Shown here piece after piece: positions 2,809 through 22,930 of a stretch of 64,000 nucleotides of DNA. The DNA comes from an uncultured virus (IMG/VR IMGVR_UViG_3300042868_002089). Its lineage: Duplodnaviria; Heunggongvirae; Uroviricota; Caudoviricetes. The translations under genes and the position numbers were made by a program. The first letter of the stretch is position 1. Each line of letters begins with the position of its first letter. The notes beneath the pieces are model-generated. The model had not been told where the DNA came from, did no database searches, and was given only the letters and a program-made list of their open reading frames with translations. The DNA lies in IMG/VR virus record IMGVR_UViG_3300042868_002089, one strand, 5' to 3'.

Positions 2809-4350
2809 CTAATAGTATGCGTACGACTTGCGGCGGAAGTAATCAGGGTCATCCTTCGCATCCGTGTTCAAAGTGATAAAACCGCCTTGCCTAAAGCGTA
2901 GCAGTGCTTGTGTGGTCGTGTCCACGAAGTCATCGTGCTCCCCAACTGGGAAAGCCGCCATCTCTTCGATCACTTCTCGTGCCCAGCGTGTGTCCGGTGC
3001 CCAGACCATGCCAGAGGCAAACAAATCAGCCACTGCGTTTAATCGTACCATCTTGTCGTTGCCGCGGCTAGGATTTGTTTCCTGCACGGGAATGTCCATA
3101 GCCCGCAGTTCTTGGATCAGCGGAGCGCCTGCGGCCTTCTTCTCCACGATGAACGCATCTGGCTCCCACTCCTTGTAGTGCTTAAGCGCAACTTCTTTAA
3201 GTTCAGGGAACGTCATGCGGTCTTTGAACGCATCAAGCAAGATAATCTGCGTCGCGTCCTTCTCCTCTTCGTTGAAGAACACGCCCCATGTGGTGCAGGC
3301 TGAATAGTCAGAGTTGTTCTTGGTCTCAAACGCCGTATCCCACGACTGAATGACGTAATCGCACTGCGGCGGGTCTTCAGACTCCCATATGCGCCACATT
3401 TTGCGCCCAACGATGGCTGAGTTCTCGCTTGTGGGCTGCTGCATGTACTGCGCGTTCCAATACCTAGGCTCAATGGACGCTTTAGTCGCTTTAAGTGCGG
3501 CGAGAGGCCACTGCTCTGGCCACAAGGACTTCTCCGTGTCCTGATCTTCGTTGAGAATGGCGGGAAGCTCCACGATTTCCCATGGAATAGCCTCGGGGTT
3601 GCGAGCTTGGTAGTCAATCAAGCGCCCAGTCAGGTCTAACAGCGACCATCTGGTCATAATCACAATGATCGCACCACCGGGCATCAAGCGTTGCAAGGGG
3701 CCGGTTTGGAACCAAGACCATGCAGTGTCAAAAGCAAGCCGTGAGTTGGCTTTTACGTCTTGTTCTGAATGAGGGTCATCAATGACGAAAAGATCAGCCC
3801 CACGGCCAGCCAGTGCGCCACCAACACCAGCAGCATAATACTGACCACCAGCAGAAGTCGACCACTTACCGGCAGCTTTCTGATCGTCTGCGACCATTGT
3901 TTGGGGGAAAACTTCACGATACTCCTCCGATTCAATCAAGTTACGCACTCTACGGCCAAAGTCTTCAGACAAACCAGCGGTGTGGGTGCCCATGATGATC
4001 TTCTTATTAGGGTATTTACCTAGGAAGTACGCAGGGAACAGGTATGAGGAGAACTCTGACTTACCCATACGTGGCGCGATGTTGATAATCACGCGCTTTT
4101 TCTTGCCCTCGACCACATCTGTGAAGATTTTGGCCAGTTTCCTGTGGTGCGGCCCGATCTTAAAGCCCGGATAGACGCTCTGAGCGAACCCCAACATGTT
4201 TGTTTTGGCCGCCTGCAAGCTGGCGCGGGCTTCACGCATCTCCAAGTCTTGGAAGAGCTCCATCTTTTCTGCCAACGTCATGTGCGGCAGTGCCTTGGCC
4301 ATTGCTTCTAGCTCAAGTTTGCTAAGAGTTGTGAACTTTTCAGTCTTCAT
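2809..4350 (-). CDS. terL: Terminase large subunit
   Basis: Walker A-like APRMGKS, Walker B-like FVIDDP, RNase H-like nuclease SWDTA...DYSA and HDDFVDTTTQAL. Confidence 0.95.
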   Translation of the reverse strand: MKTEKFTTLSKLELEAMAKALPHMTLAEKMELFQDLEMREARASLQAAKTNMLGFAQSVYPGFKIGPHHRKLAKIFTDVVEGKKKRVIINIAPRMGKSEFSSYLFPAYFLGKYPNKKIIMGTHTAGLSEDFGRRVRNLIESEEYREVFPQTMVADDQKAAGKWSTSAGGQYYAAGVGGALAGRGADLFVIDDPHSEQDVKANSRLAFDTAWSWFQTGPLQRLMPGGAIIVIMTRWSLLDLTGRLIDYQARNPEAIPWEIVELPAILNEDQDTEKSLWPEQWPLAALKATKASIEPRYWNAQYMQQPTSENSAIVGRKMWRIWESEDPPQCDYVIQSWDTAFETKNNSDYSACTTWGVFFNEEEKDATQIILLDAFKDRMTFPELKEVALKHYKEWEPDAFIVEKKAAGAPLIQELRAMDIPVQETNPSRGNDKMVRLNAVADLFASGMVWAPDTRWAREVIEEMAAFPVGEHDDFVDTTTQALLRFRQGGFITLNTDAKDDPDYFRRKSYAYY

Positions 4351-4921
4351 CTGACTTTTCTTCAGACACGTCGACTACATCGATCACACCCATGAACCTA
4401 TTGAGCTTGTCTTTGATCCGCGCTTCAAGCTCAACGTCTGACATTTCGGTCTTCTTGACCTCGACTCGCTCCGTGAACAGCGCAACCTCAGTGACTTTAC
4501 CCAGCATGTCTAGCGCTTTGAGCCGTATGCGCGCATCTGGGTGGTCTACTTCTTCTAAGATCTTAGCTACGGCAAAACCGCGCAGTTCTTTGGCTTGCTC
4601 CACAAACGCCCAATCGTAGGCGGTAAGCATTCCCACCAAATGCTGGACTGCCGCTGGCGCTTTAATGTTAGCAAGTGCTTGCTGTGTGTTCTGTGGCGGC
4701 TGGCCGGTGACTAAAGATGCAAAAGATTGCCGCGCTGCTTGGGCGTCTGCCTTGGACTCTACTGCTTCGTCGTCTAGCTCCAGCTCTTTAAGCCAGTCGG
4801 CAGTTTTGACTTGTGCATCAATGATGGTTGCAGGCTCAGCCTTATCAAGCGGCAAAAGCGTAGCCGCAGTCATATCGACTACGTCTGGGTGAAATTCGCC
4901 GTGAATAAGATGTTCTAGCAT
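4340..4921 (-). CDS. terS: Probable terminase small subunit (start reassigned to ATG at 4921)
   Basis: Immediately upstream of and overlapping terL; RLKALDMLGK motif typical of TerS; the longer upstream extension runs through promoter/terminator sequence. Confidence 0.7.
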   Translation of the reverse strand: MLEHLIHGEFHPDVVDMTAATLLPLDKAEPATIIDAQVKTADWLKELELDDEAVESKADAQAARQSFASLVTGQPPQNTQQALANIKAPAAVQHLVGMLTAYDWAFVEQAKELRGFAVAKILEEVDHPDARIRLKALDMLGKVTEVALFTERVEVKKTEMSDVELEARIKDKLNRFMGVIDVVDVSEEKSDED

Positions 4922-4950
4922 TTTTGCGTAGGTTAGTGCTGGCGTCGCAC

Positions 4951-4999
4951 TTGTTGCCTCGTTGCAGTTAGTGTACACTTCTTTTTGGCAATGGTGCAA
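4951..4999. promoter_or_regulatory. Bidirectional sigma70-like promoter built on the palindrome AGTGTACACT
   Basis: Plus: TTGTTG(4951-4956)-17bp-TACACT(4974-4979). Minus: TTGCAC(4999-4994)-18bp-TACACT(4975-4970), pointing at terS. Confidence 0.55.
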
Positions 5000-5070
5000 A
5001 TTTTTTGTTCTGTTGCTTCTCCTTGAGGTTCGCCTCCTTGCGCCCCGGCTAAACACCGGGGCTCTTTTTT
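4986..5070 (+). ncRNA. Putative anti-Shine-Dalgarno small RNA
   Basis: Own predicted promoter; single-stranded TTGCTTCTCCTT (5013-5024); GAGG-TTCG-CCTC hairpin (5025-5036); intrinsic terminator; complementary to early/middle RBSs. Confidence 0.6.
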
Positions 5071-5073
5071 ATT
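5042..5073 (+). terminator. Rho-independent terminator
   Basis: GCCCCGG-ctaaaca-CCGGGGC followed by TCTTTTTTATT. Confidence 0.8.
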
Positions 5074-5078
5074 GGCCA

Positions 5079-5094
5079 TGTCAAACGTTGGACA
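5079..5094. promoter_or_regulatory. Operator-like 16-bp imperfect palindrome (copy 1)
   Basis: TGTCAAACGTTGGACA; reverse complement TGTCCAACGTTTGACA matches copies at 13540 and 22894. Confidence 0.55.
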
Positions 5095-5287
5095 TTGGTC
5101 TTTGAAATTTTTTATAGTGGGGTGGGGGGTGGCGTTTTGGCTTTGAGATTTTGAAAAATTGGATTTGCGGGTGAGAAACAGTGTTTATGTGGACATGGTG
5201 CACCTACCCATTTTAGGGGTCATGGGGGTATGGTGGGGTCAACAGAACCCCAAAATAGGTACTTTCGTTTCTCATTCAGACCCCTCA

Positions 5288-5296
5288 TGGTAAAAT
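5288..5296 (+). promoter_or_regulatory. Early promoter, extended -10
   Basis: TGgTAAAAT upstream of the first plus-strand gene; predicted start about 5303, coinciding with the base of a hairpin. Confidence 0.55.
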
Positions 5297-5331
5297 AGAG
5301 GTATCGGTTAGGGAATCAGTCCTAGTCGATG

Positions 5332-5349: not shown

Positions 5350-5382
5350 ACAACAAACCATAGTCAACTCAAGGAGATCATC

Positions 5383-5832
5383 ATGACTAAATCAACTCTC
5401 ATCAATGTTACTTACTCTCAGTTTGCAGAGGGTGTCGGTCGCACAGATCGCATGACACTCGAAGCAAGTCTTGCATGGCACAAGGCATATGTGAAGCTCG
5501 ACAAGGAATCACAGTCAGCATGGCGTGACGACTTTGTGCTGAACTATGTTGTGGGTAAGCTCGATACCACAATGAAGCAAGCTGAGATTATTTATGCTCA
5601 GACTCGTGTCGAACGCACAGCCGAGCACGAGAAGGCTGTCAATGCGGGTTGTGCTAAGTTCCGCCACCACATCAGCCGCCCTGAGAAATCAGACGGCAAG
5701 AAGGTTGTGGTCAAGTTCACTCGTGAGCAGGTTAGTGCTTGCGACAATGCGCTTGCGGCTTTCGAGGCTGAGACACTTGCCGAGCAGATCAAGATGTTGC
5801 GTGCTTACCTCGCTACTCTCGAAACTAAATAA
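5383..5832 (+). CDS. Early hypothetical protein (first early gene)
   Basis: 149 aa MTKSTLIN...; RBS CTCAAGGAGA at 5368-5377. Confidence 0.85.
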   Translation: MTKSTLINVTYSQFAEGVGRTDRMTLEASLAWHKAYVKLDKESQSAWRDDFVLNYVVGKLDTTMKQAEIIYAQTRVERTAEHEKAVNAGCAKFRHHISRPEKSDGKKVVVKFTREQVSACDNALAAFEAETLAEQIKMLRAYLATLETK

Positions 5833-5835
5833 TCT

Positions 5836-5852
5836 CGGGAGATTTCTCCCCG
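5836..5852. repeat. GGGGAGA-type palindrome copy 2
   Basis: cGGGAGA-tt-TCTCCCcg. Confidence 0.75.
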
Positions 5853-5891
5853 ACACCGCAAGGGCGAGTCTCTTGCGGTGTTTCATTCTTT
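5853..5891 (+). terminator. Terminator-like hairpin
   Basis: ACACCGCAAG-9nt-CTTGCGGTGT followed by TTCATTCTTT. Confidence 0.55.
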
Positions 5892-5920
5892 GTCCAATCA
5901 ATAATCTCAAGGAGATCATC

Positions 5921-6103
5921 ATGCAATTCTCAGCACCCTACACACCCATCGAGTTCTACGATGCGAGCTTCAACACAGACTCAAAGCACACATTGTGGTG
6001 CGTTCGTGTCACAGGTGCTACTCGTTACGAGCCAATGCCTATGCCCAAAGGTCATTGCGTTGCGCCACCTGACGATAGCGATCTCGACAACATCTCGTTC
6101 TAA
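5921..6103 (+). CDS. Early hypothetical protein
   Basis: MQFSAPY... 60 aa; RBS CTCAAGGAGA 5906-5915. Confidence 0.75.
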   Translation: MQFSAPYTPIEFYDASFNTDSKHTLWCVRVTGATRYEPMPMPKGHCVAPPDDSDLDNISF

Positions 6104-6174
6104 GGAAACTCTACAAGCATAGCGTGCTGTGCTTGTGGGGCAATCCTGCCCACATAACTCTCAAGGAGAAAATC

Positions 6175-6351
6175 ATGACACCAACCAAAGTCATCTCACA
6201 CATCGTGTGTTCACTCGCACTCGTCACATCCATCATCGTGGGTTTGTGGTGCATGAACGAATACGGCGTTGCCCCATTGTGGGCATTGCTCACGCTTGGC
6301 GGATCGTTCTTGTTCGGCACTCAACTCATGCTCATCATCACAGGAGAATAA
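6175..6351 (+). CDS. Small two-TM membrane protein
   Basis: MTPTKVISH...; two hydrophobic stretches; RBS CTCAAGGAGAA. Confidence 0.75.
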   Translation: MTPTKVISHIVCSLALVTSIIVGLWCMNEYGVAPLWALLTLGGSFLFGTQLMLIITGE

Positions 6352-6353
6352 CC

Positions 6354-6602
6354 ATGTACCAACTGTTCAATCAATACCGCACCAAAGAAGTAGGCATCGT
6401 CAAACTTGGCGCTCAAGAGTATCACCTGCAATACCACTACCCCAACGGAGGCAGCAACTACGTTGTCTACGTCTTCAGCAAGAACCTAGCCGAGAGAGGG
6501 CGTGTATTCAGCACAGACGATGCGTTCTTCGCATGGCTCGAAGCCCAGCCCAAGCAACTGAATTTACCTTTCGGGGAGACATCTCCCCGAGATCATCAAT
6601 AA
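6354..6602 (+). CDS. Early hypothetical protein
   Basis: MYQLFNQY...; RBS AGGAGAA. Confidence 0.75.
   Translation: MYQLFNQYRTKEVGIVKLGAQEYHLQYHYPNGGSNYVVYVFSKNLAERGRVFSTDDAFFAWLEAQPKQLNLPFGETSPRDHQ
6571..6590. repeat. GGGGAGA-type palindrome copy 3
   Basis: TCGGGGAGA-ca-TCTCCCCGA. Confidence 0.85.
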
Positions 6603-6631
6603 TCTACATTATTGAGGCAAAAAACCAGTCA

Positions 6632-6938
6632 CGGCCAAATGTCCAACACTACAACCCGTGAACTAAGTTCCGTGTAACCCCGCAACCCGCATGAACAGTA
6701 GCGTTCCGCAAAAACTGTCCTATCTATCTATCTATTTAATATATATTTATATATATAGATGTGTCTATTAGGGGGTGCTCATTCTTTTTCTTTGGGACAC
6801 TTGCTTTTTTAAGTTGGCGTTAGCTTCCCAGAAAAAAGATAGATAGTTCGCACACTTTTCGTGCTAAGCTAGCATTGGTGCGGGTTCAGAACCTACACGG
6901 AAATTAGTCACAGCCCTTTAGTGTTGGACATTTGGCCG
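6632..6938. repeat. Long imperfect inverted repeat around an AT-rich core (candidate origin)
   Basis: Perfect 20-bp outer IR (6632-6651 / 6919-6938), degenerate arms of about 100 bp, TATC repeats and an A/T-only tract at about 6733-6757. Confidence 0.8.
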
Positions 6939-6965
6939 ACACTCAATTTTGGAGTCAATAATCTC

Positions 6966-7670
6966 ATGTACGAAACATACCTCAAACTCAGCGCAAACGA
7001 GCTTCACAACCGCTTAACCGAGCGCAACCTGCACCCAGCCGAGATCGAAAGAATAAAAAACGAGGTGCAATCTTTGAAAGAAACCCTGCGTGTCTCACGC
7101 ATCACACGCACACAGCGCAAGGCAGAGTGGGACAAAGTACTGCAACCCCTGCGCTACGAGATCAATAATGCCAAAGTTGGCATGAGATACGGCGGGGAGA
7201 AAGTCTCCCCAGAACGACAACACGCCTTCAGCGAGTACGTACGCATCATGGAGAAGCTGCTTGCCATGCTAGATGCCCCATTCAAAGCGCTAGACCACAC
7301 GCCCATACAGATCGCTCGTGACAAGGGACTGCCCAACGATGGCGAGCATTGGACTGACTGGATACCTGCAAGGGTCAAGGAGAAGGTAACGGATCTATTC
7401 AATCAAATCGAGGTAGCACCAAGGGGCAAGCGTAAGACGCCCTTCCAACGCACGATGCTCCCTCATCAGCACGAAACAGCCAAGGTGAGATTATTGACCA
7501 AGACAAAGAAAGAGATGGAAACGCTCGAACGCAAGATCGCAATCAACGCATCAGACGAGCGCACAGCCAAGCTCAAACAGATGCAACGAGCCATCAAGAT
7601 TATTGAGGCTCTGGACAAGAACGAAGCTGTACCAGCCACATGGACAAAACTCAACATGGGGGAGGACTGA
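6966..7670 (+). CDS. Hypothetical basic, helical protein
   Basis: MYETYLKLS... 234 aa; RBS GGAG. Confidence 0.85.
   Translation: MYETYLKLSANELHNRLTERNLHPAEIERIKNEVQSLKETLRVSRITRTQRKAEWDKVLQPLRYEINNAKVGMRYGGEKVSPERQHAFSEYVRIMEKLLAMLDAPFKALDHTPIQIARDKGLPNDGEHWTDWIPARVKEKVTDLFNQIEVAPRGKRKTPFQRTMLPHQHETAKVRLLTKTKKEMETLERKIAINASDERTAKLKQMQRAIKIIEALDKNEAVPATWTKLNMGED
7194..7210. repeat. GGGGAGA-type palindrome copy 4 (intragenic)
   Basis: GGGGAGA-aag-TCTCCCC. Confidence 0.75.
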
Positions 7671-7688
7671 CTATCAACATTCTTTCTT

Positions 7689-7719
7689 TTGGGGAGATAT
7701 CTCCCCAAGGGAATTCCCT
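7689..7719. repeat. GGGGAGA-type palindrome copy 5 plus adjacent 12-bp palindrome
   Basis: TTGGGGAGATATCTCCCCAA (perfect 20 bp) then AGGGAATTCCCT. Confidence 0.85.
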
Positions 7720-7781
7720 GTGCTCGGCACTTGGGCAACGCTGTGCACCATCCGCAACCTGCCTAATCAAGGAGAAACAAA

Positions 7782-7970
7782 ATGAAAAGAGAACCACACA
7801 GCAAGTACACCCACGCCATCGTGGAAGTCAAACTAACTGTCACATGGAACGATGGCATCGTTGAGGACTTAACGCCTCACCTACCGCCTGAGCTTCAGTC
7901 GAACATCGAGGAGTACCTCGTTGAGATGGATGACCTGCGTACGCAGAACCCTGCCAACTATTTTCTGTAA
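7782..7970 (+). CDS. Early hypothetical protein
   Basis: 62 aa; RBS TCAAGGAGAAACAA. Confidence 0.8.
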   Translation: MKREPHSKYTHAIVEVKLTVTWNDGIVEDLTPHLPPELQSNIEEYLVEMDDLRTQNPANYFL

Positions 7971-7981
7971 GGAGAAACAAA

Positions 7982-8398
7982 ATGAAATATGAAACGCTAA
8001 TGGAAGCGCAACTGAGCGCCTACCCTGACAGCATCAAGCTGACTGACCTACAGATGATGGATACCTTACGCACCGCCACACCTGACTGGCTCAGCTATCG
8101 CAAGCTCAAGGAGTGGCGGTACTACTCTGACTTGAGCGATGCGTTGAAGGAAGACGAGTGGCTTGTCAATCGTATGTATGAGACCTCGGTGGATCTGCAA
8201 AGTGAAGAGGCACGAGCGCAATGGGCGAGGAACGCCTTCATCTATCGGGCAGAGACGCCCGAAGGGTTCTTCTACGCCTGTTGCAAACAACCTGACGGCA
8301 AATACAAGTTCGTTGGGTTCAGGTACGGACTCGAAGACAGCGAGTACGCATCAGGGTTCGGTGGCATGAATTACACACCAGAAGGAGAAAGCAAATGA
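7982..8398 (+). CDS. Early hypothetical protein
   Basis: 138 aa; RBS AAGGAGAAACAA. Confidence 0.8.
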   Translation: MKYETLMEAQLSAYPDSIKLTDLQMMDTLRTATPDWLSYRKLKEWRYYSDLSDALKEDEWLVNRMYETSVDLQSEEARAQWARNAFIYRAETPEGFFYACCKQPDGKYKFVGFRYGLEDSEYASGFGGMNYTPEGESK

Positions 8399-8679
8399 GC
8401 AAGACAGCAGACATTTTCGGTAAGTCATACGCCGTATATGAACCAGAGGTGGACATAACAGGCAAATGGAATCTACGCAGGGTAGATAAGACACGCACCG
8501 ATGGTGGGTGGGAAATCATGGAGGTGTACTACGACAGCAAGGATCGCCCCGTTGGGGCGTGTGCGTTCTCGGTCTCTAAATCAGAGAGCGCTAACTTCAC
8601 AGATGTGATCGGGATGCTTCAGTCAGCGCAAGCCAAGCCTGTACTGAAGTTGGCGAAAGATGGCAAGTTCATTATTTAA
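8395..8679 (+). CDS. Early hypothetical protein
   Basis: 94 aa; RBS AAGGAGAAAGCAA; ATGA overlap. Confidence 0.8.
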   Translation: MSKTADIFGKSYAVYEPEVDITGKWNLRRVDKTRTDGGWEIMEVYYDSKDRPVGACAFSVSKSESANFTDVIGMLQSAQAKPVLKLAKDGKFII

Positions 8680-8690
8680 GGAGAAAGCAA

Positions 8691-8915
8691 ATGACTAAAG
8701 CCAAACACAAGACCAACATCCAGTTGGTCACAGACCTCATGTCGCACTCACAGCAGGGCGCTCTCATGCAGGCGTTCATCATCGAGGCGATATCCAAGTA
8801 CTCAGAACAAACCAAAGTCTCACCGCCTTGGTCTAACCAAAGCTTCATCAGCGAGGCCGCATGGCGTGCGTGTGCTGACGAGGCGCTCGAAGCAATCAAC
8901 AACAGGAGTAAGTGA
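8691..8915 (+). CDS. Early hypothetical protein
   Basis: 74 aa; RBS AAGGAGAAAGCAA. Confidence 0.8.
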   Translation: MTKAKHKTNIQLVTDLMSHSQQGALMQAFIIEAISKYSEQTKVSPPWSNQSFISEAAWRACADEALEAINNRSK

Positions 8916-8916
8916 A

Positions 8917-9156
8917 ATGAGAGTAGTAAAAATCCGTGTGTTCGGCACATACAAACAGCCGTTCAACAATGCGTTCAAAGCAGACTGTATTGTCCTGCCC
9001 GCTGAGTTATCAGACTCGATGCGTGATGAGGTGTTACGCAAGCATGACGATTTGTTCTTTGTGTTCACCTCTGGTGATCCGATCGTGGGTGAGCACCACA
9101 CCTTCGAGGTGTATTCGTTCGATGTAATTAGTGAAGAGGAGGTAGCCCTCGCCTGA
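8917..9156 (+). CDS. Early hypothetical protein
   Basis: MRVVKIRVFG...; RBS AGGAG. Confidence 0.7.
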   Translation: MRVVKIRVFGTYKQPFNNAFKADCIVLPAELSDSMRDEVLRKHDDLFFVFTSGDPIVGEHHTFEVYSFDVISEEEVALA

Positions 9157-9189
9157 GCAACAGGCGTGTTCGTTAGTGTGTTAGTTCAA

Positions 9190-9208
9190 CGGGGACACCA
9201 TGTCCCCG
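9190..9208. repeat. GGGGACA-type palindrome copy 6
   Basis: CGGGGACA-cca-TGTCCCCG upstream of the amidoligase gene. Confidence 0.75.
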
Positions 9209-9245
9209 ATGTGTATTTATTTTTTTATAACTCAAGGAGAAGTAT

Positions 9246-11315
9246 ATGTTTACATTTACAAAGTTCGTTGTGGTTGATTCTGTTGACCGCACCACAGGTA
9301 TGCTGCTTGTGTCGTTCAGCAACAAGTACGCTTTGTACAACGCCAGTCGGCGTCGTGTTATGACTGATGTGATGCGTGCCGACAGTGGTGTTGACCCTAT
9401 CACTCTCATCAATAACGCTCAGTTTGGTATCTGGTTTCATGGCAGTAACTATCGCATGAGCCCTGTTCATGCAGTCGAGACGCTGTCGTTTCCCGATGCG
9501 CTTCTGTACGCCAGTGACCGCTACGATATCCACCAGATGATGCGTGCTGTGCTTCGGCCTGCCAGTGCTTCAGATGCGCGTATCCACCCAGTTGATCGCC
9601 GTCTTATCAATCAGCGTGTCGAGGTCATCGTTGATAAGTACATAGCCAAGCAGACAGGCAATGTGGCAACCATCTCGCCACACGCTAGGTTCAAGGGCGG
9701 GTACTACTACCTTCCGTCTACACTCCTTGCCGCACGCAATGCGTTCCGTGAGTTCGGTCACTTGGTTGCTCGTGCCAAGGCAGATGATCCGTCAGCCGAC
9801 TCCGATGCACTGCGTGAGGCGTTCTACGAGCTTGACAATCGCTATCACGACTTCGATACGCATATCAACAGCGCGTTCTGTGCTCTCGAGGACTTCGGTC
9901 TTGGCATTGTGCACTGTGACTGCGGTCACTACGAAAGCGATGAGAACACGCACGATGTGCGTAACGACACATGGTGTGACTCGTGCTTCGATGATGACGC
10001 TGTGTTCTGCGAGGATGAGAACGAGTACTGGCCTCGTGATGACTGCTACTACTCTGAGTCTCGTGATGCGTACTACTCGTATGATCGTGATGGCGAAGAT
10101 GATGACGATGATGAAGATCGCAACCAACCGATCATGTCGTACTCAACCAATGTGCTCGATGTTATTGGCAATGAGTCAGGCATCAGGTCGTCTCACTTCG
10201 GTGAGTTCACGATGGGCATCGAGCTTGAGATGACTTCGGGTGATGACTACAGCGAGTCAGCCGCTGAGTCTGTGCGTAGCCGTCTCGGTTCCTCATACTG
10301 CATCATCAAGAGTGACGGCTCGCTTCCATCCAATGGCTTCGAGGTCGTGACTTCACCGCATGGTCTTGCCACGCACATCGAGAAGTTCAAGACTTGGGAC
10401 ATTGACCCAGCCTATCGTGCATGGAACACAGGCAAGTGCGGTATGCACGTACACATTGACTCTCGTGCGTTCACTCAGATGACGCTTGGCAAGTTCTTGA
10501 TGTTCATCAACAGCAATGGCAATGTCGACTTCATTCGCAAGATTGCAGGTCGCCATCCATCTGTCGATGACCAAGCCCGTAGCTACTGCGCCGCTGAGCA
10601 CCAGTCCATCCTTGTCAACCCCAAGCAGGCTGTCAAGGGCAAGTCGGGTGAGCGCTATCGCATGGTCAACCTGTGCAATCTCGGTAGCCGTGAGGCTATA
10701 CGCTTGGGTCTTAGCATGGACAACAGCTACAACGGCAGGTACAACACTGTCGAGCTTCGCATCTTCCGTGCTTCGCTCAAGAAGGAACGTCTGCTTGCAC
10801 AGATCGAGTTCACTCATGCGTCTGTCATGTTCTGCCGTGTCGCATCGTGGCGTGATCTCAACGGCACATCGTTCGTCAAGTGGCTCAAGACTGTGGCAGG
10901 TCAGTACCCTGCGCTAGTCAAGTGGTATGGCGTGCGTGCTGTGCATGGTGCATCTAAGCAACCCTCTGCCCCTGCCGAGGTTACTTGCACTGACACTGTG
11001 CCCCCTGTTGTTGCCTTTACAACCCGACGCCCTCACGGGTGTGACCACGAGTATCGGATGGAGATAGCGCATGAGGATGGCGCTGGTATACGTGCCTACG
11101 CTACCCGACACGGGCTGTACTTCACATACTTCAGGGTGATCGGCTTGCAGTTGTGTGTGTTCCCGTACAGCGGCAACGATCAGCAGATCGGTGACGAGGA
11201 TGTGATCTACGTGCGTGACAACGATGTGTGGCGTCTGCAAGACGACGACTTCAACTCATTGATTCAGGGTCAGAGCCCTGTGCCTGCCGATGTTGATGGC
11301 AATGCTTCCGTTTAA
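9246..11315 (+). CDS. Putative amidoligase (COOH-NH2 ligase, Amidoligase_2-like) with Cys-rich N-terminal module
   Basis: GIELE, KSDGSL, GFEVVTSP, CGMHVH, RYRMVN, TVELRIF motifs; HCDC and WCDSC Cys pairs. Confidence 0.8.
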   Translation: MFTFTKFVVVDSVDRTTGMLLVSFSNKYALYNASRRRVMTDVMRADSGVDPITLINNAQFGIWFHGSNYRMSPVHAVETLSFPDALLYASDRYDIHQMMRAVLRPASASDARIHPVDRRLINQRVEVIVDKYIAKQTGNVATISPHARFKGGYYYLPSTLLAARNAFREFGHLVARAKADDPSADSDALREAFYELDNRYHDFDTHINSAFCALEDFGLGIVHCDCGHYESDENTHDVRNDTWCDSCFDDDAVFCEDENEYWPRDDCYYSESRDAYYSYDRDGEDDDDDEDRNQPIMSYSTNVLDVIGNESGIRSSHFGEFTMGIELEMTSGDDYSESAAESVRSRLGSSYCIIKSDGSLPSNGFEVVTSPHGLATHIEKFKTWDIDPAYRAWNTGKCGMHVHIDSRAFTQMTLGKFLMFINSNGNVDFIRKIAGRHPSVDDQARSYCAAEHQSILVNPKQAVKGKSGERYRMVNLCNLGSREAIRLGLSMDNSYNGRYNTVELRIFRASLKKERLLAQIEFTHASVMFCRVASWRDLNGTSFVKWLKTVAGQYPALVKWYGVRAVHGASKQPSAPAEVTCTDTVPPVVAFTTRRPHGCDHEYRMEIAHEDGAGIRAYATRHGLYFTYFRVIGLQLCVFPYSGNDQQIGDEDVIYVRDNDVWRLQDDDFNSLIQGQSPVPADVDGNASV

Positions 11316-11331
11316 TTCAACAACAACCATC

Positions 11332-11358
11332 GGGGACAACCTGTCCCCATTCTTTTTT
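11332..11358. repeat. GGGGACA-type palindrome copy 7 with T tract
   Basis: GGGGACA-acc-TGTCCCC attctttttt. Confidence 0.75.
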
Positions 11359-11375
11359 ACCTCAAGGAGTTTATT

Positions 11376-12485
11376 ATGTGTTTAATCATTACAGGTCAGT
11401 CTTCCAAAGTTCGTTCAACCCTGCTCGACACGCACGGGTTACTCAGCGACATCTTCACATCCAACCCTGACGGCATTGGGTTCATGTACGGCACAGCCAA
11501 GGGGCTCAAGGTCACCAAGTCCTTGCCCAAGAATCTCGGCGATGCTTCTGCATTCATTCAGCGCTTGCCTCAAGACGATCGTGAGATTGCTATCCACTTC
11601 CGCTGGACTACACACGGCAAGACCGATATGCTCAACTGCCATCCATACGATGTGATCCCTGGCTTCATCGCCATGATGCACAACGGCGTACTGCATACAG
11701 GCAATGCCGCTGACACGTCCAAGTCTGACACATGGCACTTCATCAAGGACTACTTGCACAGCGCTGTGTCCTCTGCCCCTGACCTTGTGTATGACGCAGG
11801 CTTCGTTGCTATGCTCGAGGAGTTCATCGGCAACAACCGCTTCGTGTTCATGAATGGCGAGGGTCGTATGCAGCACGTCAACTTCGATCAGGGTATCGAG
11901 CACGATGACTTGTGGTTCAGCAATACCTATGCGTGGACACCATCACGCCTGATCCCAAGCTACAAGAGCACGACTGCACTCAAGTCGTACAAGTACACCA
12001 GTGCATACGGCGGCTACATGGATGACGAGTACGACGAGATGTATGACTACAACGCTAGCTTCAACGTCAAGCCCCGTGGTATCAGCGCACACAGCGCCAA
12101 CTACGACGAGACAGCGTACGACTTTCCTGATGACGAGGATGGCTTCGTTCAGCCAACACCTGAAGACCTTGCTGTTGCACTGACCGAGGCTGACGTTGAG
12201 ACGATGGAGATATGGCTTGACCAGATGCCTGCGTACACGCTGACTACTGTGCTCCACTTGTTCCAGCCTGAGCCACTCACGTACACACATCGTGACGACT
12301 TGTGCGTTGCCGAGCAGGGCATCTACGATATGCTGATGGAGGGCGATGCGTCTGGTCTTATCAGCATGGCTACCAAGTCGTATGGTGCGGTCAGTACTAT
12401 CGCTGAGGTCGTGTGTTACTACCTGCAATGGGATGTGCGCAAGCCTGTGTCATTCAAGCCAACCTTGCCTGCACTGTTGACTTGA
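11376..12485 (+). CDS. Class II (Ntn) glutamine amidotransferase
   Basis: N-terminal MC, NPDGIG, HFRWTTHG, NCHPY, HNG, SDT motifs. Confidence 0.9.
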   Translation: MCLIITGQSSKVRSTLLDTHGLLSDIFTSNPDGIGFMYGTAKGLKVTKSLPKNLGDASAFIQRLPQDDREIAIHFRWTTHGKTDMLNCHPYDVIPGFIAMMHNGVLHTGNAADTSKSDTWHFIKDYLHSAVSSAPDLVYDAGFVAMLEEFIGNNRFVFMNGEGRMQHVNFDQGIEHDDLWFSNTYAWTPSRLIPSYKSTTALKSYKYTSAYGGYMDDEYDEMYDYNASFNVKPRGISAHSANYDETAYDFPDDEDGFVQPTPEDLAVALTEADVETMEIWLDQMPAYTLTTVLHLFQPEPLTYTHRDDLCVAEQGIYDMLMEGDASGLISMATKSYGAVSTIAEVVCYYLQWDVRKPVSFKPTLPALLT

Positions 12486-12491
12486 TTTGTA

Positions 12492-12517
12492 GTGGGGGGC
12501 TTGCCCCCCACATTTTT
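12492..12517 (+). terminator. Rho-independent terminator
   Basis: GTGGGGGG-cttg-CCCCCCAC-ATTTTT. Confidence 0.7.
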
Positions 12518-12528
12518 AAGGAGGATGT

Positions 12529-12795
12529 ATGAAACTTTTTACTTCTAAGCTTGACCGAATACCCAACGACAAAAAGGAGCCGCTGTACACATTGGAAGAG
12601 ATAGCCGACAGGCTTGGCGTTGAGCACAAGGTGCTGAAGAGCCTTATTAGCAGGAGTAGTAGGGTGTGCCCATCACCTAAAGCTGTGCTTATAGCCAGAT
12701 CACATAGTCAGATGACTAAGAAGTTATACATGCTGTCTGAATACAAAGCATGGTTTAAACAACGGCAAGACAGTATCAAAGGAGAAAGCAAATGA
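12529..12795 (+). CDS. Small HTH DNA-binding protein (excisionase/MerR-like)
   Basis: LYTLEEIADRLGV pattern. Confidence 0.55.
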   Translation: MKLFTSKLDRIPNDKKEPLYTLEEIADRLGVEHKVLKSLISRSSRVCPSPKAVLIARSHSQMTKKLYMLSEYKAWFKQRQDSIKGESK

Positions 12796-13274
12796 GAAAG
12801 ACAGGGTGGGATCCACCTGCGCTGATGCAGGATGACCACGGAGGGCTAAGCAGATGGTTTGCTACACGCCCTGATGCACGCTATGTTTTTATTAAAAACC
12901 AAAGGAGAAAGCAAATGAAATACAAAATGGAAATAGTCATGTCCTACTGGCAGACAGTAGTGATCGAAGCCGACAGCCGTGCCGATGCTGAGAACAGGGC
13001 GCTCTACGAGTTTGACATCAGCAAGGCACGCATGGGGGATGGTGAGGTGTATGACACAAAGATTGTCTATGAGCCTACGCCAGAAGAGAATGCCTTCTTG
13101 GAAGCATACCTTCGGAATGTTGCCTCTGCATCACGAGACGAAGTGCTGATGTTCCTTGAATACGTGGTCGATGGGGGCATAAACAAAGACAGCTATCACT
13201 GGTGGTCAGGCGTGGAAGACGCATGGCTTATGTGGAAAGACGCTAAGAAATTTTTACAAGGAGAAATCAAATGA
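12792..13274 (+). CDS. Hypothetical protein with a second in-frame start at 12915
   Basis: Two identical RBS-start units AAGGAGAAAGCAAATG in the same frame. Confidence 0.75.
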   Translation: MRKTGWDPPALMQDDHGGLSRWFATRPDARYVFIKNQRRKQMKYKMEIVMSYWQTVVIEADSRADAENRALYEFDISKARMGDGEVYDTKIVYEPTPEENAFLEAYLRNVASASRDEVLMFLEYVVDGGINKDSYHWWSGVEDAWLMWKDAKKFLQGEIK

Positions 13275-13453
13275 AAGTATCAGACACCACAGCGCTACAC
13301 CTGCGCTGTATCGAGGCAGACCTGCGGGACTACCTTATGAACCCTGCCGAGTACCGAGTCACGCACCTTGAGGACATTCATGTCTTGTTGCTCGAGGTCA
13401 TGCGCACACTTGGCGTTGCACCTACAACCGAAGGAGAAAACAATGATGACTAA
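13271..13453 (+). CDS. Hypothetical protein
   Basis: 60 aa; RBS AAGGAGAA. Confidence 0.75.
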   Translation: MKVSDTTALHLRCIEADLRDYLMNPAEYRVTHLEDIHVLLLEVMRTLGVAPTTEGENNDD

Positions 13454-13535
13454 CTGGGAAAAGTTCGAAAGAATAGTACTTTTGTTGGCGGTAATTGTAC
13501 TTATTGCCGATATTTTTTATTGGCGAGGGTATTGA
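13443..13535 (+). CDS. 30-aa single-TM peptide (missing from ORF track)
   Basis: MMTNWEKFERIVLLLAVIVLIADIFYWRGY; RBS AAGGAGAA. Confidence 0.65.
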   Translation: MMTNWEKFERIVLLLAVIVLIADIFYWRGY

Positions 13536-13561: not shown

Positions 13562-13585
13562 GTACCCCCAAGGAGAAATAACTAA

Positions 13586-17275: not shown

Positions 17276-17514
17276 CTGACTGGACACCCGAAGAAGACGA
17301 AGCTTTCAACGATGTTGAAAAGCACAGCAACCTTGGCAAGCAGATACTGCGTGACATGGGACAGCCGTATGTGTACGCACCCAAGCGTGAGTGGGTGGGG
17401 CTGACGGATGTAGAGATCGTGGACATTATGGATGTGGAGTTAACTACGCAAAACACTGAGCACTTTGCACTCTGCCAAGCCATTGAAGCCAAACTCAAGG
17501 AGAAGAACACGTGA
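17272..17514 (+). CDS. Conserved phage protein
   Basis: WVGLTD...AIEAKLKEKN motif. Confidence 0.75.
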   Translation: MTDWTPEEDEAFNDVEKHSNLGKQILRDMGQPYVYAPKREWVGLTDVEIVDIMDVELTTQNTEHFALCQAIEAKLKEKNT

Positions 17515-17804
17515 CACCAAACACAATTGAATTTAAAACCACAAGCAACACATTGATGGATGGTTGGGTGATGCGTATCACAGCAGATAGGCGCATTGAA
17601 GTTAATGAAGACGTTGATGTAACTGAAGCCGCAAAGCAGGTGCTAGAGGCTATGCAGTGGATGATTGATAATCAGAAGCGCACATGGGTCGACCTGACCA
17701 ACAAAGAGATCGGTGAGATATACCGCGCAGGGTGGGCAAACAACATGGACTACGCCGAGGCGATTCAGAAAGCACTAAAGGAGAAGAATGAGCGCACCAT
17801 ATGA
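17511..17804 (+). CDS. Conserved phage protein (C-terminus paralogous to previous gene)
   Basis: WVDLTN...AIQKALKEKN; GTG start with RBS CTCAAGGAGAAG. Confidence 0.7.
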   Translation: MTPNTIEFKTTSNTLMDGWVMRITADRRIEVNEDVDVTEAAKQVLEAMQWMIDNQKRTWVDLTNKEIGEIYRAGWANNMDYAEAIQKALKEKNERTI

Positions 17805-19773
17805 CACGATCTTATCGATCGACTTCGAGACCTACTGGGACACCAAGATAGGTTACACACTAACCAAAATGACAACTGAGGAGTACATACGCCATGACTT
17901 ATTTCACGCGTTTGGATGCTGCGTTCATGAGTTCGGATCTGACAGCCCAACTACGTGGGTTAGAGGAGATGGACTACGTGAATACTTTTCTGGAATCGAC
18001 TGGGGACGAACCGCAGTGCTTGCGCACAACGCACAGTTCGATGTATCAATTATGGAGTGGCGATACGGTGTACGCCCATGCTTCATCTTCGATACCCTAT
18101 CAATGGCGCGAGCTTTACGTGGCGTGGAAGTTGGAAACTCACTTGCAAAGCTCGCCCGTGACTTCGGGCTTCCAGATAAAGGTACAGCGGTTCATTCAAC
18201 TAACGGAGTTCACGAGCTGGAACCCAGCCTTGAACGAGAACTCGCTGAATACTGCAAGCATGATGTGTTTCTGTGCGAGGAAATATTCAAACGGCTGGTG
18301 GATGCCTACCCATCGAAGGAACTACGGCTTATAGACATGACCCTCAAGATGTACACCCGTGCATGCCTTGAGCTTGACCCCAACATGCTGACCGACGCCA
18401 TACTAGACGAAAAGGAAAAACGTGAAGCCCTATTACAGAAACTCGGCGTGGACGAAACTGCTCTGGCGTCGAACCCGCAGTTTGCTGCACTACTTGAGAA
18501 ACTCAATGTGGTTCCGCCAACCAAGACAAGTAAGACGACTGGGAAAGAGACACTTGCCCTCGCTAAAAACGATGCCCTATTTCAAGCGCTACTCAATGGT
18601 GAACGTGAGGACGTTGCCCTACTTTGTGAAGCGCGTCTTAAGGTTAAATCTACCACTGAGCGCACCCGTGCACAGCGCTTCTTGGACATCAGCAAACGTG
18701 GCTCGCTTCCAGTTCCGCTTTCGTACTACGGTGCACAGACAGGCCGCTGGACAGCGTCGAAAGGCTCGGCCATCAACATGCAGAACCTCAAGCGAGGCTC
18801 GTTCTTACGCAAAGCAATTATGGCTCCCGCTGGCCACCAACTCGTCGTTGGAGATCTATCGCAGATTGAGCCGCGAGTACTCGCGTGGCTTTCAGACTAC
18901 ACGGACATGCTGGACATCTTCCGCGCTGGGGGTGACCCTTACGCCGCGTTCGGTTCGCAGATGTTTAACATACCCGGACTTAGTAAGGAGTCTCACCCCG
19001 ATCTTAGGCAGTCAGCGAAAAGCGCGCTCCTTGGCTGTGGATACGGTCTTGGCTGGGCGGCTTTTGCTTCACAGCTTCTCACTGGATTCCTTGGGGCACC
19101 ACCACAGCGCTACGACTTGGCCTTTGCAAAGAAGCTTGGCGTTACTCAACAAGCAGCGCAGAAGTTCTTGGAATGGGAAGTCAATGTCGAGAAGCTCCAA
19201 TCCATACCGCACACCTGCACAACCAAGGAGCTAGTCATCCACTGCCTTGCGGCCAAGGCCATCATCGACAAGTACCGCGCTACGGCTACGCCTGTCGTGG
19301 AGTTCTGGGACTTGAACACACAGCTTATCGGTGAGTGTCTGTACAGAGGCAAGACGTACAAGCACAAGTGCCTGACGTACCGCAAGGGGGAGATTGAGCT
19401 GCCCTCTGGCATGAAACTGTTGTATCCTGACCTCAACATCAGGCGCTTTACAGACGAGAAAACAAATAAAGAGCAGACAGAGTGGACATACGGGCCAGAT
19501 CGTACTAAGATATATGCAGGAAAAATAACCAACAATGTCACGCAGGGCGTAGCGAGATGCGTGATGACTGATGGGATGGTACGTACTGCAAAGAGATACT
19601 TTGTGGCGGGGACAGTACATGACGAGCAGATCGTTGTGGTTCCTGACGCTGAAGTAGCTGAAGCTAAGACTTGGGTCTTGGCGCAGATGACTATGGAGCC
19701 GCCTTACATGCCGGGCATTCCATTGGACGCTGACGGTGGCGCGCACCGTAGATATGGGTTAGCAAAAAACTAG
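17788..19773 (+). CDS. polA: DNA polymerase family A with 3'-5' exonuclease
   Basis: DFET, HNAQFD, TGRW, NMQNL, DLSQIEPR (motif A), RQSAKSALLGCGYG (motif B), VHDE (motif C). Confidence 0.95.
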   Translation: MSAPYDTILSIDFETYWDTKIGYTLTKMTTEEYIRHDLFHAFGCCVHEFGSDSPTTWVRGDGLREYFSGIDWGRTAVLAHNAQFDVSIMEWRYGVRPCFIFDTLSMARALRGVEVGNSLAKLARDFGLPDKGTAVHSTNGVHELEPSLERELAEYCKHDVFLCEEIFKRLVDAYPSKELRLIDMTLKMYTRACLELDPNMLTDAILDEKEKREALLQKLGVDETALASNPQFAALLEKLNVVPPTKTSKTTGKETLALAKNDALFQALLNGEREDVALLCEARLKVKSTTERTRAQRFLDISKRGSLPVPLSYYGAQTGRWTASKGSAINMQNLKRGSFLRKAIMAPAGHQLVVGDLSQIEPRVLAWLSDYTDMLDIFRAGGDPYAAFGSQMFNIPGLSKESHPDLRQSAKSALLGCGYGLGWAAFASQLLTGFLGAPPQRYDLAFAKKLGVTQQAAQKFLEWEVNVEKLQSIPHTCTTKELVIHCLAAKAIIDKYRATATPVVEFWDLNTQLIGECLYRGKTYKHKCLTYRKGEIELPSGMKLLYPDLNIRRFTDEKTNKEQTEWTYGPDRTKIYAGKITNNVTQGVARCVMTDGMVRTAKRYFVAGTVHDEQIVVVPDAEVAEAKTWVLAQMTMEPPYMPGIPLDADGGAHRRYGLAKN

Positions 19774-19781
19774 GAGAAGCA

Positions 19782-20087
19782 ATGAAGTTACCAACCAAGA
19801 TAAGAGTTGGGCGAAGGTGGTACTCAGTCGAAGTAGTCGAAGCCATGCTTGACAAGCGTGACATGGGGCGGGTCTTTTACCATGACCAACGCATCCAACT
19901 AGGTCGAACGAGTAACACCACAGGCAGGCAGTTCAAACCAGAGGAGATCGCAGATACCTTCTGGCACGAGGTTGTACACACAATTCTGAGGGACATGGGC
20001 GAGCACCGCCTCAATGCCAACGAAGCGTTTGTCACCAAGTTTGCCAACCGACTCACCGAAGCCATTAACACAGCGAAGTTCGAATGA
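19782..20087 (+). CDS. Small HExxH metallopeptidase-like protein
   Basis: TFWHEVVHTIL...NEAFV. Confidence 0.7.
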   Translation: MKLPTKIRVGRRWYSVEVVEAMLDKRDMGRVFYHDQRIQLGRTSNTTGRQFKPEEIADTFWHEVVHTILRDMGEHRLNANEAFVTKFANRLTEAINTAKFE

Positions 20088-21284: not shown

Positions 21285-21299
21285 TAGCTTGGAGAAGCA

Positions 21300-22859
21300 A
21301 TGGAAATCGTAGAAGACAAAGCACTTATCTTACGCACAAGGAACCCGCACAAGTACTCAATCATCCCAAAGAGCAAGGCCATGCCCCGTGCAGACGGTGG
21401 CTACGATGTCGCTGTTTACTGGGGTCTTGACGAAGCGCGGGTGTTGCGTAACCTAGGTGTTAAAAATGTGCCATCGCCGATTGTTCGGCGCTATGACTGG
21501 CCGGGGCGTTACAAGCCCATGGCGCACCAGATCGAGACTGCATCGTTCCTCACGATGTACAGGAGAGCCTTTGTGTTCTCTGAGCCCGGTACTGGCAAGA
21601 CACTGTCTGCGCTCTGGGCGGCTGACTACTTGATGAAACTCAAGAAGGTGCGTAGGGTTTTGATTCTGTGTCCTCTGTCGATCATGCACAGCGCATGGAT
21701 GGGGGACATCAACAACAGCGTCATTCACCGCTCTGCCGTTATCGCGCACCATCCGCAAGCTAGTCGGCGCATCGAGATGATTCAGCGTGACTACGAGATC
21801 GTCATCACCAACTACGAAGGGCTCAACCTGATTGCGGATGAAGTGCGTAACGATGGCCGCTTCGACCTAGTGATTGTTGACGAAGCCAACGCGTACAAGA
21901 CCATCACCACACGCAGATGGAAGTCGCTCAATTCTATCCTTATGCCGAACACGTACCTGTGGATGATGACTGGTACGCCTGCATCGCAGTCGCCTGTGGA
22001 TGCGTATGGTTTGGCCAAGTTAGTTAACCCAGAGGGCGTGCCCAAGTTCTTCACAGCATGGCGCGATCAGGTGATGAACAAGCTAACGATGTTCAAGTGG
22101 GCTCCTAAGTTTGATGCCAAGGAGAAAGTGCACGAAGCCCTGCAACCTGCGATACGCTTTACCAAAGCACAGTGCCTTGACTTGCCGCCTGTCATCACAA
22201 TGACGCGTGAAGTACCGCTGACCCCACAGCAAGCCAAGTACTACACAATGCTCAAAGACCGCATGCTGGTGCAAGCTGCAGGTGAGACGATCACCGCTGT
22301 CAACGCCGCCGCAGGCGTATCCAAGCTACTGCAGATCAGTTGTGGTGCGGCCTACACAGACGACAAGGAAGTTGTTGAGTTCGACTCAGCGCCCCGCCTG
22401 TCGGTGCTTGAGGAAATCTTGGAGGAGACTGATCGCAAGGTCATCATCTTCGCCCTGTTCCGAAGCACCATCGACACGATCAGTAACTACCTGACCAAGA
22501 AGGGCGTTGTCAACGAGTGCATTCACGGAGACATATCCCCAAGCAAGCGCGGTATAACTATCAACCGCTTCCAGACCGAGCCAAACCCCCGTGTGTTAGT
22601 GATGCAACCAGCCGCTTCTGCCCACGGCATTACGCTGACTGCCGCTGATACTGTGGTGTTCTATGGCCCGCTCATGAGCGTTGAGCAGTACATCCAGTGC
22701 TGTGCCCGTGCTGACCGCAAAGGGCAAGACTCAGACAAAGTTACTGTGATTCACATTCAGAGTAGCCCGATTGAGAAGAAGATGTTTAATGCGTTGGCTG
22801 GGAAAGTTAGCGATAACTTACTTTTGACTGACATGTTTGAAACTGAAATTAAATCTTGA
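21300..22859 (+). CDS. SNF2-family DNA helicase
   Basis: PGTGKT, VDEA, MTGTP, HGITLT, Q...RADRKGQ. Confidence 0.92.
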   Translation: MEIVEDKALILRTRNPHKYSIIPKSKAMPRADGGYDVAVYWGLDEARVLRNLGVKNVPSPIVRRYDWPGRYKPMAHQIETASFLTMYRRAFVFSEPGTGKTLSALWAADYLMKLKKVRRVLILCPLSIMHSAWMGDINNSVIHRSAVIAHHPQASRRIEMIQRDYEIVITNYEGLNLIADEVRNDGRFDLVIVDEANAYKTITTRRWKSLNSILMPNTYLWMMTGTPASQSPVDAYGLAKLVNPEGVPKFFTAWRDQVMNKLTMFKWAPKFDAKEKVHEALQPAIRFTKAQCLDLPPVITMTREVPLTPQQAKYYTMLKDRMLVQAAGETITAVNAAAGVSKLLQISCGAAYTDDKEVVEFDSAPRLSVLEEILEETDRKVIIFALFRSTIDTISNYLTKKGVVNECIHGDISPSKRGITINRFQTEPNPRVLVMQPAASAHGITLTAADTVVFYGPLMSVEQYIQCCARADRKGQDSDKVTVIHIQSSPIEKKMFNALAGKVSDNLLLTDMFETEIKS

Positions 22860-22909: not shown

Positions 22910-22930
22910 ACAAAATAACAGGAGAAGCAA

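Follow-up and report, generated by a model that had tools for sequence, protein, structure and literature searches.

The 64,000-nucleotide stretch of DNA analysed here, in its full length referred to as the window, comes from an uncultured virus of the Caudoviricetes (IMG/VR record IMGVR_UViG_3300042868_002089) and represents most of one phage genome. In the divergent control region between its first packaging gene, terS, and its early promoter lies a short unit at 4951 to 5071 that we describe here as the gene of a small RNA. Comparison with related loci supports the assignment of this unit as a discrete plus-strand non-coding RNA, which extends from a promoter to a terminator and presents an exposed anti-Shine-Dalgarno (anti-SD) stretch. 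Also supported by the comparison is an extended ribosome-site motif that marks the early and middle, and not the late, genes of the phage; the small RNA carries the mirror copy of this motif. It is tempting to speculate that the RNA acts against the ribosome-binding sites (RBS) of the phage's own early and middle genes, a reading that we put forward tentatively, as plausible and a little short of probable.

A predicted folded plus-strand RNA between a promoter and a terminator

Related loci were collected from IMG/VR; the number of TerS homologues found is 4279. With TerS of the window as query, 366 related loci were obtained, of which 80 were kept; further loci came from a pattern scan and, the window included, this near clade comprises 82 distinct versions of the stretch from terS to the terminator. 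A TerS that is 52% identical to that of the window gave 170 related loci, and 80 of these were fetched as the distant clade. The unit has the following parts in the window:

4951..4956, plus strand: -35 hexamer TTGTTG; TTGT.G is invariant in the 82 distinct near-clade sequences
4974..4979, plus strand: -10 hexamer TACACT, separated from the -35 hexamer by a 17-nt spacer and located inside the 10-bp palindrome AGTGTACACT (4970-4979)
4987..5070, plus strand: predicted small RNA of 84 nt; the G located 8 nt behind the -10 hexamer is taken as the start, the end lies in the U-run
4987..5017, plus strand: stem-loop 1, in which GGCAAUGG pairs with CUGUUGCU; the loop is a variable spacer
5018..5024, plus strand: single-stranded linker UCUCCUU (anti-SD core), inside the invariant 14-mer 5013-5026
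5025..5036, plus strand: stem-loop 2, GAGG-UUCG-CCUC; compensatory changes affect 3 of its 6 pairs among the near-clade sequences and 6 of 6 among the distant ones
5042..5071, plus strand: intrinsic terminator with a stem at 5042-5062 followed by the U-run; also found by a terminator scan

The promoter, the pyrimidine tract (5011-5024 in the DNA), the GAGG-TTCG-CCTC hairpin and the terminator had been proposed in a preliminary description of this DNA made from the letters alone, and all of them were found again where it had placed them. Its central claim, a discrete plus-strand RNA without ORF (open reading frame), is backed by the fold, the strand bias, the covariation and the promoter geometry. 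The pyrimidine tract had been described as unpaired; this holds for UCUCCUU (5018-5024), whereas the preceding UGUUGCU is predicted to pair with the 5' end of the RNA.

Stem-loop 1 begins with the predicted transcript's first nucleotide. Its helix is paired to 99.2%, with many G-U pairs, and the changes in it preserve the pairing on the plus strand only; length variation from 2 to ~50 nt falls in its loop. Stem-loop 2 varies in stem length and sequence among the relatives. In the terminator, G-U pairs make the plus strand far more stable, and the T-run is kept in all relatives. The unit of the window has a minimum free energy of -30.7 kcal/mol (z -3.64) on the plus strand vs -25.6 kcal/mol (z -2.31) on the minus strand. 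When the 82 near-clade sequences (80-120 nt) were folded without constraints, they shared the layout of stem-loop 1, linker, stem-loop 2 and terminator. The bracket pattern of the seed region was identical in 70 of the 82 and a near variant of it was seen in 11, CUCCUU had an unpaired probability of 0.97 across the set, and the plus-strand fold was lower in energy for 81 of the 82 (mean -35.1 vs -26.3 kcal/mol).

With the raw MAFFT alignment, RNAalifold found stem-loop 1 and hairpin 3 and, because of indels, mispaired the other hairpins; a covariance model (R1) was then built on a hand-written structure. R1 finds one copy in the window and one per related locus. In 65 distinct rows of the near clade, 95.1% of 1537 pair cells are standard pairs vs 87.4% after shuffling, a value that none of 500 shuffles reached, and with slid partners only 36-52% are standard. 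Changes on both sides were found in 11 of the 24 pairs. The 379 G-U cells vs 19 A-C cells give a pairing of 95.1% on the plus strand vs 71.6% on the minus strand. In the distant clade R1 matches 77 of the 80 loci at the same place and on the same strand; here 88.2% of the cells pair vs 67.0% after shuffling, with both-sided changes in 18 of the 24 pairs, and for both clades the alignments lean towards R1 and the sequences are related, so that these numbers overstate independence; the free folds agree with them.

A plus-strand ORF of 47 amino acids (4962-5105) can be read mechanically, but no ORF is conserved: in 10 of the 82 near-clade sequences no frame is open across the unit and in some others the open frame is a different one. 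Altogether, the unit has in silico what is generally expected of a small RNA, that is, its own promoter and a Rho-independent terminator around a stretch without ORF, a conserved fold and a single-stranded seed. None of the 4227 Rfam models scored at its gathering threshold; the best plus-strand scores were 24.9 bits for PsrR1 (RF02701, gathering 42) and 23.5 bits for suhB/MmgR (RF00519, gathering 41).

An optional extra hairpin with the core GGCTT(T/C)CAGCC was seen in the loop of stem-loop 1 in two related loci (L013, 1000-1119; L150, 281-392). The same hairpin is present in a contig of run X3, at window 5010-5013. One run labelled RNA-Seq that shares sequence words with the window behaves like DNA.

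The promoter and its possibly shared -10 region

The geometry TTGnnn-N17-TA(T/C)ACT-N7-GG is found in 77 of 77 near-clade sequences and in 45 of 55 distinct sequences of the distant clade. Within the near clade, the promoter block is invariant throughout and by itself little informative; in the distant clade the sequence of the spacer differs and the geometry persists. Variants of the -10 hexamer, TACAAT and TATACT, occur at the identical position, TACAAT in three near-clade variants.

The palindrome around the -10 hexamer, AGTGTACACT or AGTATATACT, reads TACACT or another -10 hexamer on the minus strand as well, and it does not recur elsewhere in the window. Together with TTGC(A/G)C, located 18 nt upstream on that strand (TTGCAC in the window), it forms a candidate divergent promoter of terS, and a corresponding minus-strand pattern, TTG[C/T]nn-N17-19-TAnA[A/C/T]T, is found in 77 of 77 near-clade and 35 of 55 distant distinct sequences. 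This suggests that the small RNA and terS have back-to-back promoters sharing their -10 region, and the terS mRNA would therefore start near 4966, without the SD-like motif that lies opposite the linker. A shared palindromic -10 region fits co-regulation of terS and the small RNA and fits competition between them equally well.

Between the ATG of terS and the -35 hexamer, at 4925-4952, there is a further small hairpin, AGTGC-TGGCGTC-GCACT, whose pairs change in a compensatory manner, UA becoming CG in 8 of the 82 sequences and GC becoming AU in 11; some relatives have an insertion of ~20 nt in this region. The hairpin may be the 5' leader of terS.

The seed mirrors an extended ribosome-site motif of early and middle genes

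The 14-mer TTGCTTCTCCTTGA, in which the linker is embedded, is exact in 88 of 88 distinct near-clade leaders, and both hairpins as well as the spacer vary. The reverse complement of 5013-5030 is AACCTCAAGGAGAAGCAA. The plus strand of the window has 21 exact matches to it of at least 9 nt and the minus strand a single one, which is the element itself; 15 of the 21 coincide with starts of plus-strand genes (5368 to 22930) and are located where the preliminary description had read early RBS. The heptamer AAGGAGA alone shows the same asymmetry (20 plus vs 1 minus, again the element itself). It is present at 16 of 44 early and middle gene starts vs 0 of 39 late gene starts (Fisher p=9e-6), and the base next to GGAG is A at 25 of 39 early vs 3 of 19 late sites (p=7e-4). 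The candidate targets are:

5368..5377, plus strand: RBS CTCAAGGAGA of the first early gene (ATG 5383), predicted duplex -21.3 kcal/mol
9231..9242, plus strand: RBS of a gene for a 689-aa protein with an amidoligase domain, motif match and duplex prediction
17494..17505, plus strand: RBS CTCAAGGAGAAG (GTG 17511), best predicted duplex, -25.6 kcal/mol
17778..17786, plus strand: RBS of the family A DNA polymerase gene, motif match
19772..19782, plus strand: gene start AGGAGAAGCAATG, motif match
21291..21300, plus strand: start of the SNF2 helicase gene, GGAGAAGCAATG, motif match
22920..22930, plus strand: gene start AGGAGAAGCAAATG, motif match

The bias is also seen in five near-complete relatives, in which AAGGAGA occurs 17/3, 15/3, 12/4, 19/2 and 18/1 times on the strand of the early genes and on the other strand, respectively, and reversed-pattern controls occur 0-4 times; where C, G or T follows AAGGAG instead, the counts are alike on both strands and at the level of the controls. 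The longer pattern GGAGAA(N)GCAA has 1-7 copies on the early strand of each of these five genomes and exactly one on the opposite strand, which lies at the RNA gene (controls 0-1). The AGCAA part of the motif cannot pair with the tail of 16S rRNA, and therefore something besides the ribosome's tail appears to constrain the early gene starts. The predicted duplexes with the seed are more stable for early than for late initiation regions (median -15.2 vs -10.7 kcal/mol, p=1.6e-5).

A 9-nt perfect complement between 5007-5015, in the 3' arm of stem-loop 1, and 5240-5248, in the early leader, was also considered; it is not conserved in the relatives and is probably due to chance.

Variation of seed and target among distant relatives

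If seed and ribosome sites interact they may be expected to change together, and the preliminary description had named such covariation as a check. The seeds of the distant clade are of two types, GC-UU-CUCC and GC-UUU-CUCC. In up to 4 kb of early flank, the UU-seed loci (59 loci, 152 kb) have 9 copies of GGAGAAGCAA and 23 of GGAGAAAGCAA, whereas the UUU-seed loci (33 loci, 115 kb) have 1 copy of GGAGAAGCAA and 63 of GGAGAAAGCAA. UU and UUU seeds are thus associated with AA- and AAA-type sites (9:23 vs 1:63), but the answer as a whole is mixed. One whole contig, G010, is concordant: its seed is UUU and its early strand has 12 AAA-type sites, besides the copy of the element itself. The exceptions are taken up below.

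The opposite strand and the leader of terS

The mirror copy of the motif reads as an SD-like sequence on the minus strand, ahead of terS. In the window, the nearest start codon after GGAG on this strand is a TTG 19 nt away, so that the earlier claim that the minus strand offers no usable start codon is correct for the window; it does not extend to the relatives, since in 63 of the 82 distinct near-clade sequences an ATG follows GGAG at the canonical distance. The ORFs that start at these 63 ATGs are heterogeneous: 15 are open in the frame of terS, 27 share this frame and terminate 12 nt ahead of the terS ATG, 10 continue in a different frame and 11 end far upstream. Frame and end of this leader ORF are not conserved. 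Differences within it, such as ATG vs CAG and ACT vs GCT, alter the peptide and keep the plus-strand helix via G-U intermediates. The whole unit is kept in 19 of the 82 sequences, including the window, that have no minus-strand start codon, which argues for a role beyond that of a minus-strand RBS. No minus-strand promoter was detected upstream of the motif.

The start of terS itself has no SD sequence in the near clade (CCTACGCA(AAA)ATG; 4919-4940, minus strand); in the distant clade AGGA is found at this place. Three further readings, a +1 frameshift leading from the leader ORF to terS, a GUG start at GAGG-N6-GTG and a bridge of SD, hairpin and AUG, were considered and dropped, as the codons or frames are not conserved.

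A model for the function of the small RNA and its alternatives

What comparison gives is the strand and fold of the RNA, the geometry of its promoter, the conserved seed and the way in which the motif is distributed over early and late genes. Based on these, we propose the following model. The host RNA polymerase would make the ~84-nt RNA from its own weak sigma-70-type promoter, and its own intrinsic terminator would end the RNA just upstream of the early promoter. The exposed UCUCCUU would then nucleate pairing with AAGGAGA at early and middle gene starts, and opening of stem-loop 1 would let the pairing spread into AGCAA, up to the full AAGGAGAAGCAA. Between about a third and half of the early and middle genes, those for the DNA polymerase and the SNF2 helicase among them, have this private ribosome-binding motif, and no late gene has it. 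Pairing would exclude the 30S subunit from the RBS and in this way lower the translation of this set of genes. In those relatives that have a start codon behind the mirror copy, the small RNA would also be a perfect antisense RNA to the site in the terS leader.

Several observations weigh against this model. Expression of the RNA, its timing and the repression of its targets are all things that we infer, from evidence that is comparative throughout, and the sequences compared are related to each other, so that the counts are not counts of independent events. The preliminary description went further than our model, in that the RNA would silence the early and middle programme as a whole and, co-activated with terS, would drive the early-to-late switch; AAGGAGA is present at only 16 of the 44 early and middle gene starts. 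The early initiation regions also pair better with the canonical 16S tail (-8.8 vs -6.4 kcal/mol, p=4e-5), and there is a modest excess (p=0.007) of early pairing that is specific for the small RNA. Stem-loop 1 sequesters UUGCU of the seed (unpaired probability 0.07), and an anti-SD stretch of 6-7 nt would also touch AAGGAG sites of late genes and of the host. The covariation of seed and target is suggestive and not strict: G007 and G009 are discordant, with a UU seed and 5-6 AAA-type sites, the window is mixed, with 4 AAA-type and 3 AA-type sites, and 3 of 51 distinct distant sequences have CUCUCUC as their core, with early sites that still show GGAG with AAG(C/T)AAATG. Finally, in the 63 relatives mentioned above the ATG stands 5 nt after GGAG, which is the spacing at the starts of the early genes, gene callers report TerS in the 193-aa form and often in longer forms, and the mirror copy may thus be a working RBS in most relatives.

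The last points lead to two explanations that start from terS. The RNA could be real and act in cis only, as an antisense RNA to the terS leader of the kind of sar of P22 or c4 of P1/P7, blocking the RBS and start of a leader ORF or of a long TerS and thereby delaying terminase and late expression; the likeness to the early sites would then be a by-product. The RNA is, by construction, perfectly complementary to the minus strand, 42 of the 63 ATGs are in the frame of terS, the near-clade terS ATG without its own SD sequence fits coupling to an upstream ORF, and the placement beside terS is kept in both clades. We nevertheless consider a function restricted to cis unlikely: the window and 18 others keep promoter, fold and seed without a start codon to act on, the frame and end of the leader are not conserved and the changes in it are non-synonymous yet helix-preserving, and the candidate terS promoter lies downstream of the motif, none having been found upstream, so that its mRNA would not contain the site. 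The early-specific extension of the motif would be left unexplained as well. Alternatively, there could be no regulatory RNA at all, with the minus-strand motif serving as RBS of a longer TerS or a leader peptide, and hairpin and T-run as a terminator by which the early promoter is insulated from stray antisense transcripts. That 63 of 82 relatives have an ATG at the usual distance and that longer forms of TerS are called would agree with this, and so would the terminator that abuts the early promoter and its operator. This leaves unexplained why stem-loops 1 and 2 covary on the plus strand only, why the promoter geometry is conserved with the start exactly at the first base of stem-loop 1 and why the unit is kept in the absence of a start codon; we therefore regard it as very unlikely.

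A different possibility is that the RNA is real and its pyrimidine stretch serves another purpose, be it as a decoy resembling the 16S tail, for a protein or for host mRNAs, or as a put-like antitermination element. In favour of this, UCUCCUU is nearly the anti-SD core of 16S rRNA, the gene of the RNA is co-directional with and directly upstream of the early promoter, the only resemblances in Rfam, all below threshold, are to anti-SD-type bacterial small RNAs, and 3 of 51 distinct distant sequences have the CUCUCUC core. An antitermination element is hard to reconcile with the strong conserved terminator that ends the RNA in every relative, and neither for such an element nor for a decoy would one expect the AGCAA-extended complementarity to early starts together with a single mirror copy per genome. 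Another role of this sort is in our view quite unlikely, and the small RNA directed against the early and middle ribosome sites is the reading that we, tentatively, prefer.

Comparison with known systems

Phage devices that read the ribosome-binding region of many early mRNAs are known from T4, where the RegB endoribonuclease cuts within GGAG and RegB and the RegA repressor shut early translation as infection proceeds. These are proteins, whereas the effector proposed here is a base-pairing RNA. Small phage RNAs are known as well: sar of P22 pairs around an RBS and blocks translation. Another such RNA, c4 of P1/P7, is an antisense RNA that blocks translation at an RBS, according to the available text of a review (PMC12197685). 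Common to c4, sar and the RNA described here is that the complementary bases are displayed in an exposed part of a folded RNA. However, c4 and sar act on one antirepressor gene in the immunity of temperate phages, and here a whole class of early and middle starts would be addressed; there is no relation in sequence or in Rfam, and in the window no start codon lies opposite the RNA.

Among bacterial small RNAs, RsaE/RoxS, the csRNAs and the 'cuckoo' CcsR RNAs have C/U-rich loops. With these and with PsrR1 and MmgR/suhB the RNA described here shares its own promoter, a terminator, exposed anti-SD pyrimidines and many targets; it differs from them in that it does not belong to their Rfam families, is phage-encoded and has its best matches in the phage's own genes. 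A phage RNA of this kind is not described in the open-access full texts searched, nor in the available text of a 2025 review of phage small RNAs.

The distribution of the motif has a parallel in Cluster K mycobacteriophages. Their start-associated sequences (SAS) stand 3-7 bp before the start codons of non-structural genes, in one orientation plus a single reverse copy, and the trans factor was suggested to be 'either RNA or protein', as far as the accessible text of the description goes (PMC3203893); in a paper of 2025 the function is, in the part available, still called unverified (PMC12699233). The motif described here is alike in that it exceeds the SD sequence, stands a few bases (3-8 nt) before the starts, is confined to the non-structural half and has one orientation with a single opposite copy. 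This is a likeness in the way of working and not homology: SAS have another sequence (GGGATAGGAGCCC), host and phage type, no RNA partner is described for them in the available parts of these papers, and the reverse copy lies here inside a covarying RNA that extends from promoter to terminator.

We observed in passing that the single reverse SAS of Adephagia (L204:38660-38716) is in the loop that a 9-bp stem closes, within a 430-nt gap without coding sequence. In Anaya (L205:4855-4900) the stem is kept; a C is changed to U in it, and on the gene strand the pairing persists. The stem, GTCGACCAG/CTGGTCGAC, is located in a gap of ~400 nt near the right genome end and on the strand of the surrounding genes. 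The reverse SAS of these two phages may represent an RNA element directed against the SAS.

Temporal control in phages has been described chiefly for transcription and for a small number of proteins. A phage RNA that recognises a private tag on ribosome sites would add a post-transcriptional layer to the early-to-late transition, and it offers a hypothesis for why some phages carry start motifs longer than the SD sequence, a question that dates from 2011. That there is a widespread class of such 'anti-start-site' small RNAs in lytic phages, which mirror private start motifs and shut off early and middle gene sets by pairing, as an RNA counterpart of RegA/RegB, is a doubtful though conceivable extension. 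If there is, the trans factor that is missing for the SAS of Cluster K may be an RNA of this type.

Genome setting and further features

The genes terS, terL and an ORF of 871 amino acids point leftward. The rightward arm (5383-28282) has ~44 small and replication genes, including those for a family A DNA polymerase, an SNF2 helicase, a PD-(D/E)XK nuclease and a DUF927 primase-helicase; among the large early proteins, Pfam gave no phage RNA polymerase. The late arm (64000-28405) has ~36 genes that are read leftward, and at its end a single ORF of 2914 amino acids covers 28405-37149 (minus strand). The features next to the small-RNA unit are:

2809-4350, minus strand: terL (Terminase_6C/6N)
4340..4921, minus strand: terS, 193 aa, ATG at 4921, MLEH..., no SD sequence directly upstream
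4970..4999, minus strand: candidate divergent terS promoter, TTGCAC (4999-4994), N18, TACACT (4975-4970)
5089-5118, plus strand: early promoter TGGACA-18-TATAGT, directly after the terminator of the small RNA, with the palindrome TGTCAAACGTTGGACA over its -35 hexamer

The closest cultured phages by TerL, with ~50% identity, are the pelagiphages HTVC027P/023P, the lake phage DSL-LC04 and 023Pt_psg01, in which the gene order differs. R1 found no copy in two stretches from the closest cultured relatives, and a DNA search against cultured phages gave no match. The sequence of the window is present in metagenomes of lakes and drinking water, and the phage group is very abundant in these habitats.

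A phage-type promoter motif, CCCCACTATAAAAA, was considered and rejected; it does not recur, with 7 matches vs 4 expected. Over the -35 hexamer of the early promoter, at 5079-5094, there is an operator-like palindrome, TGTCnAACGTTnGACA, that is kept in the relatives. Related copies are found ahead of middle genes at 13540-13555 and 22894-22909, with 2 and 1 mismatches, respectively, and the palindrome may be the binding site of a regulator of early and middle genes. The region from the early promoter to the first gene (5120-5300) contains conserved G-rich blocks, GGGGTGGGGGG and GGTGGGGGTAGGGTGGGG, and a conserved block AAAATTGGATTTGCGGGTG.GGAACAGTGTTTAT, which could be an origin or a leader element; a second promoter-like site with an extended -10 region is located at 5269-5296.

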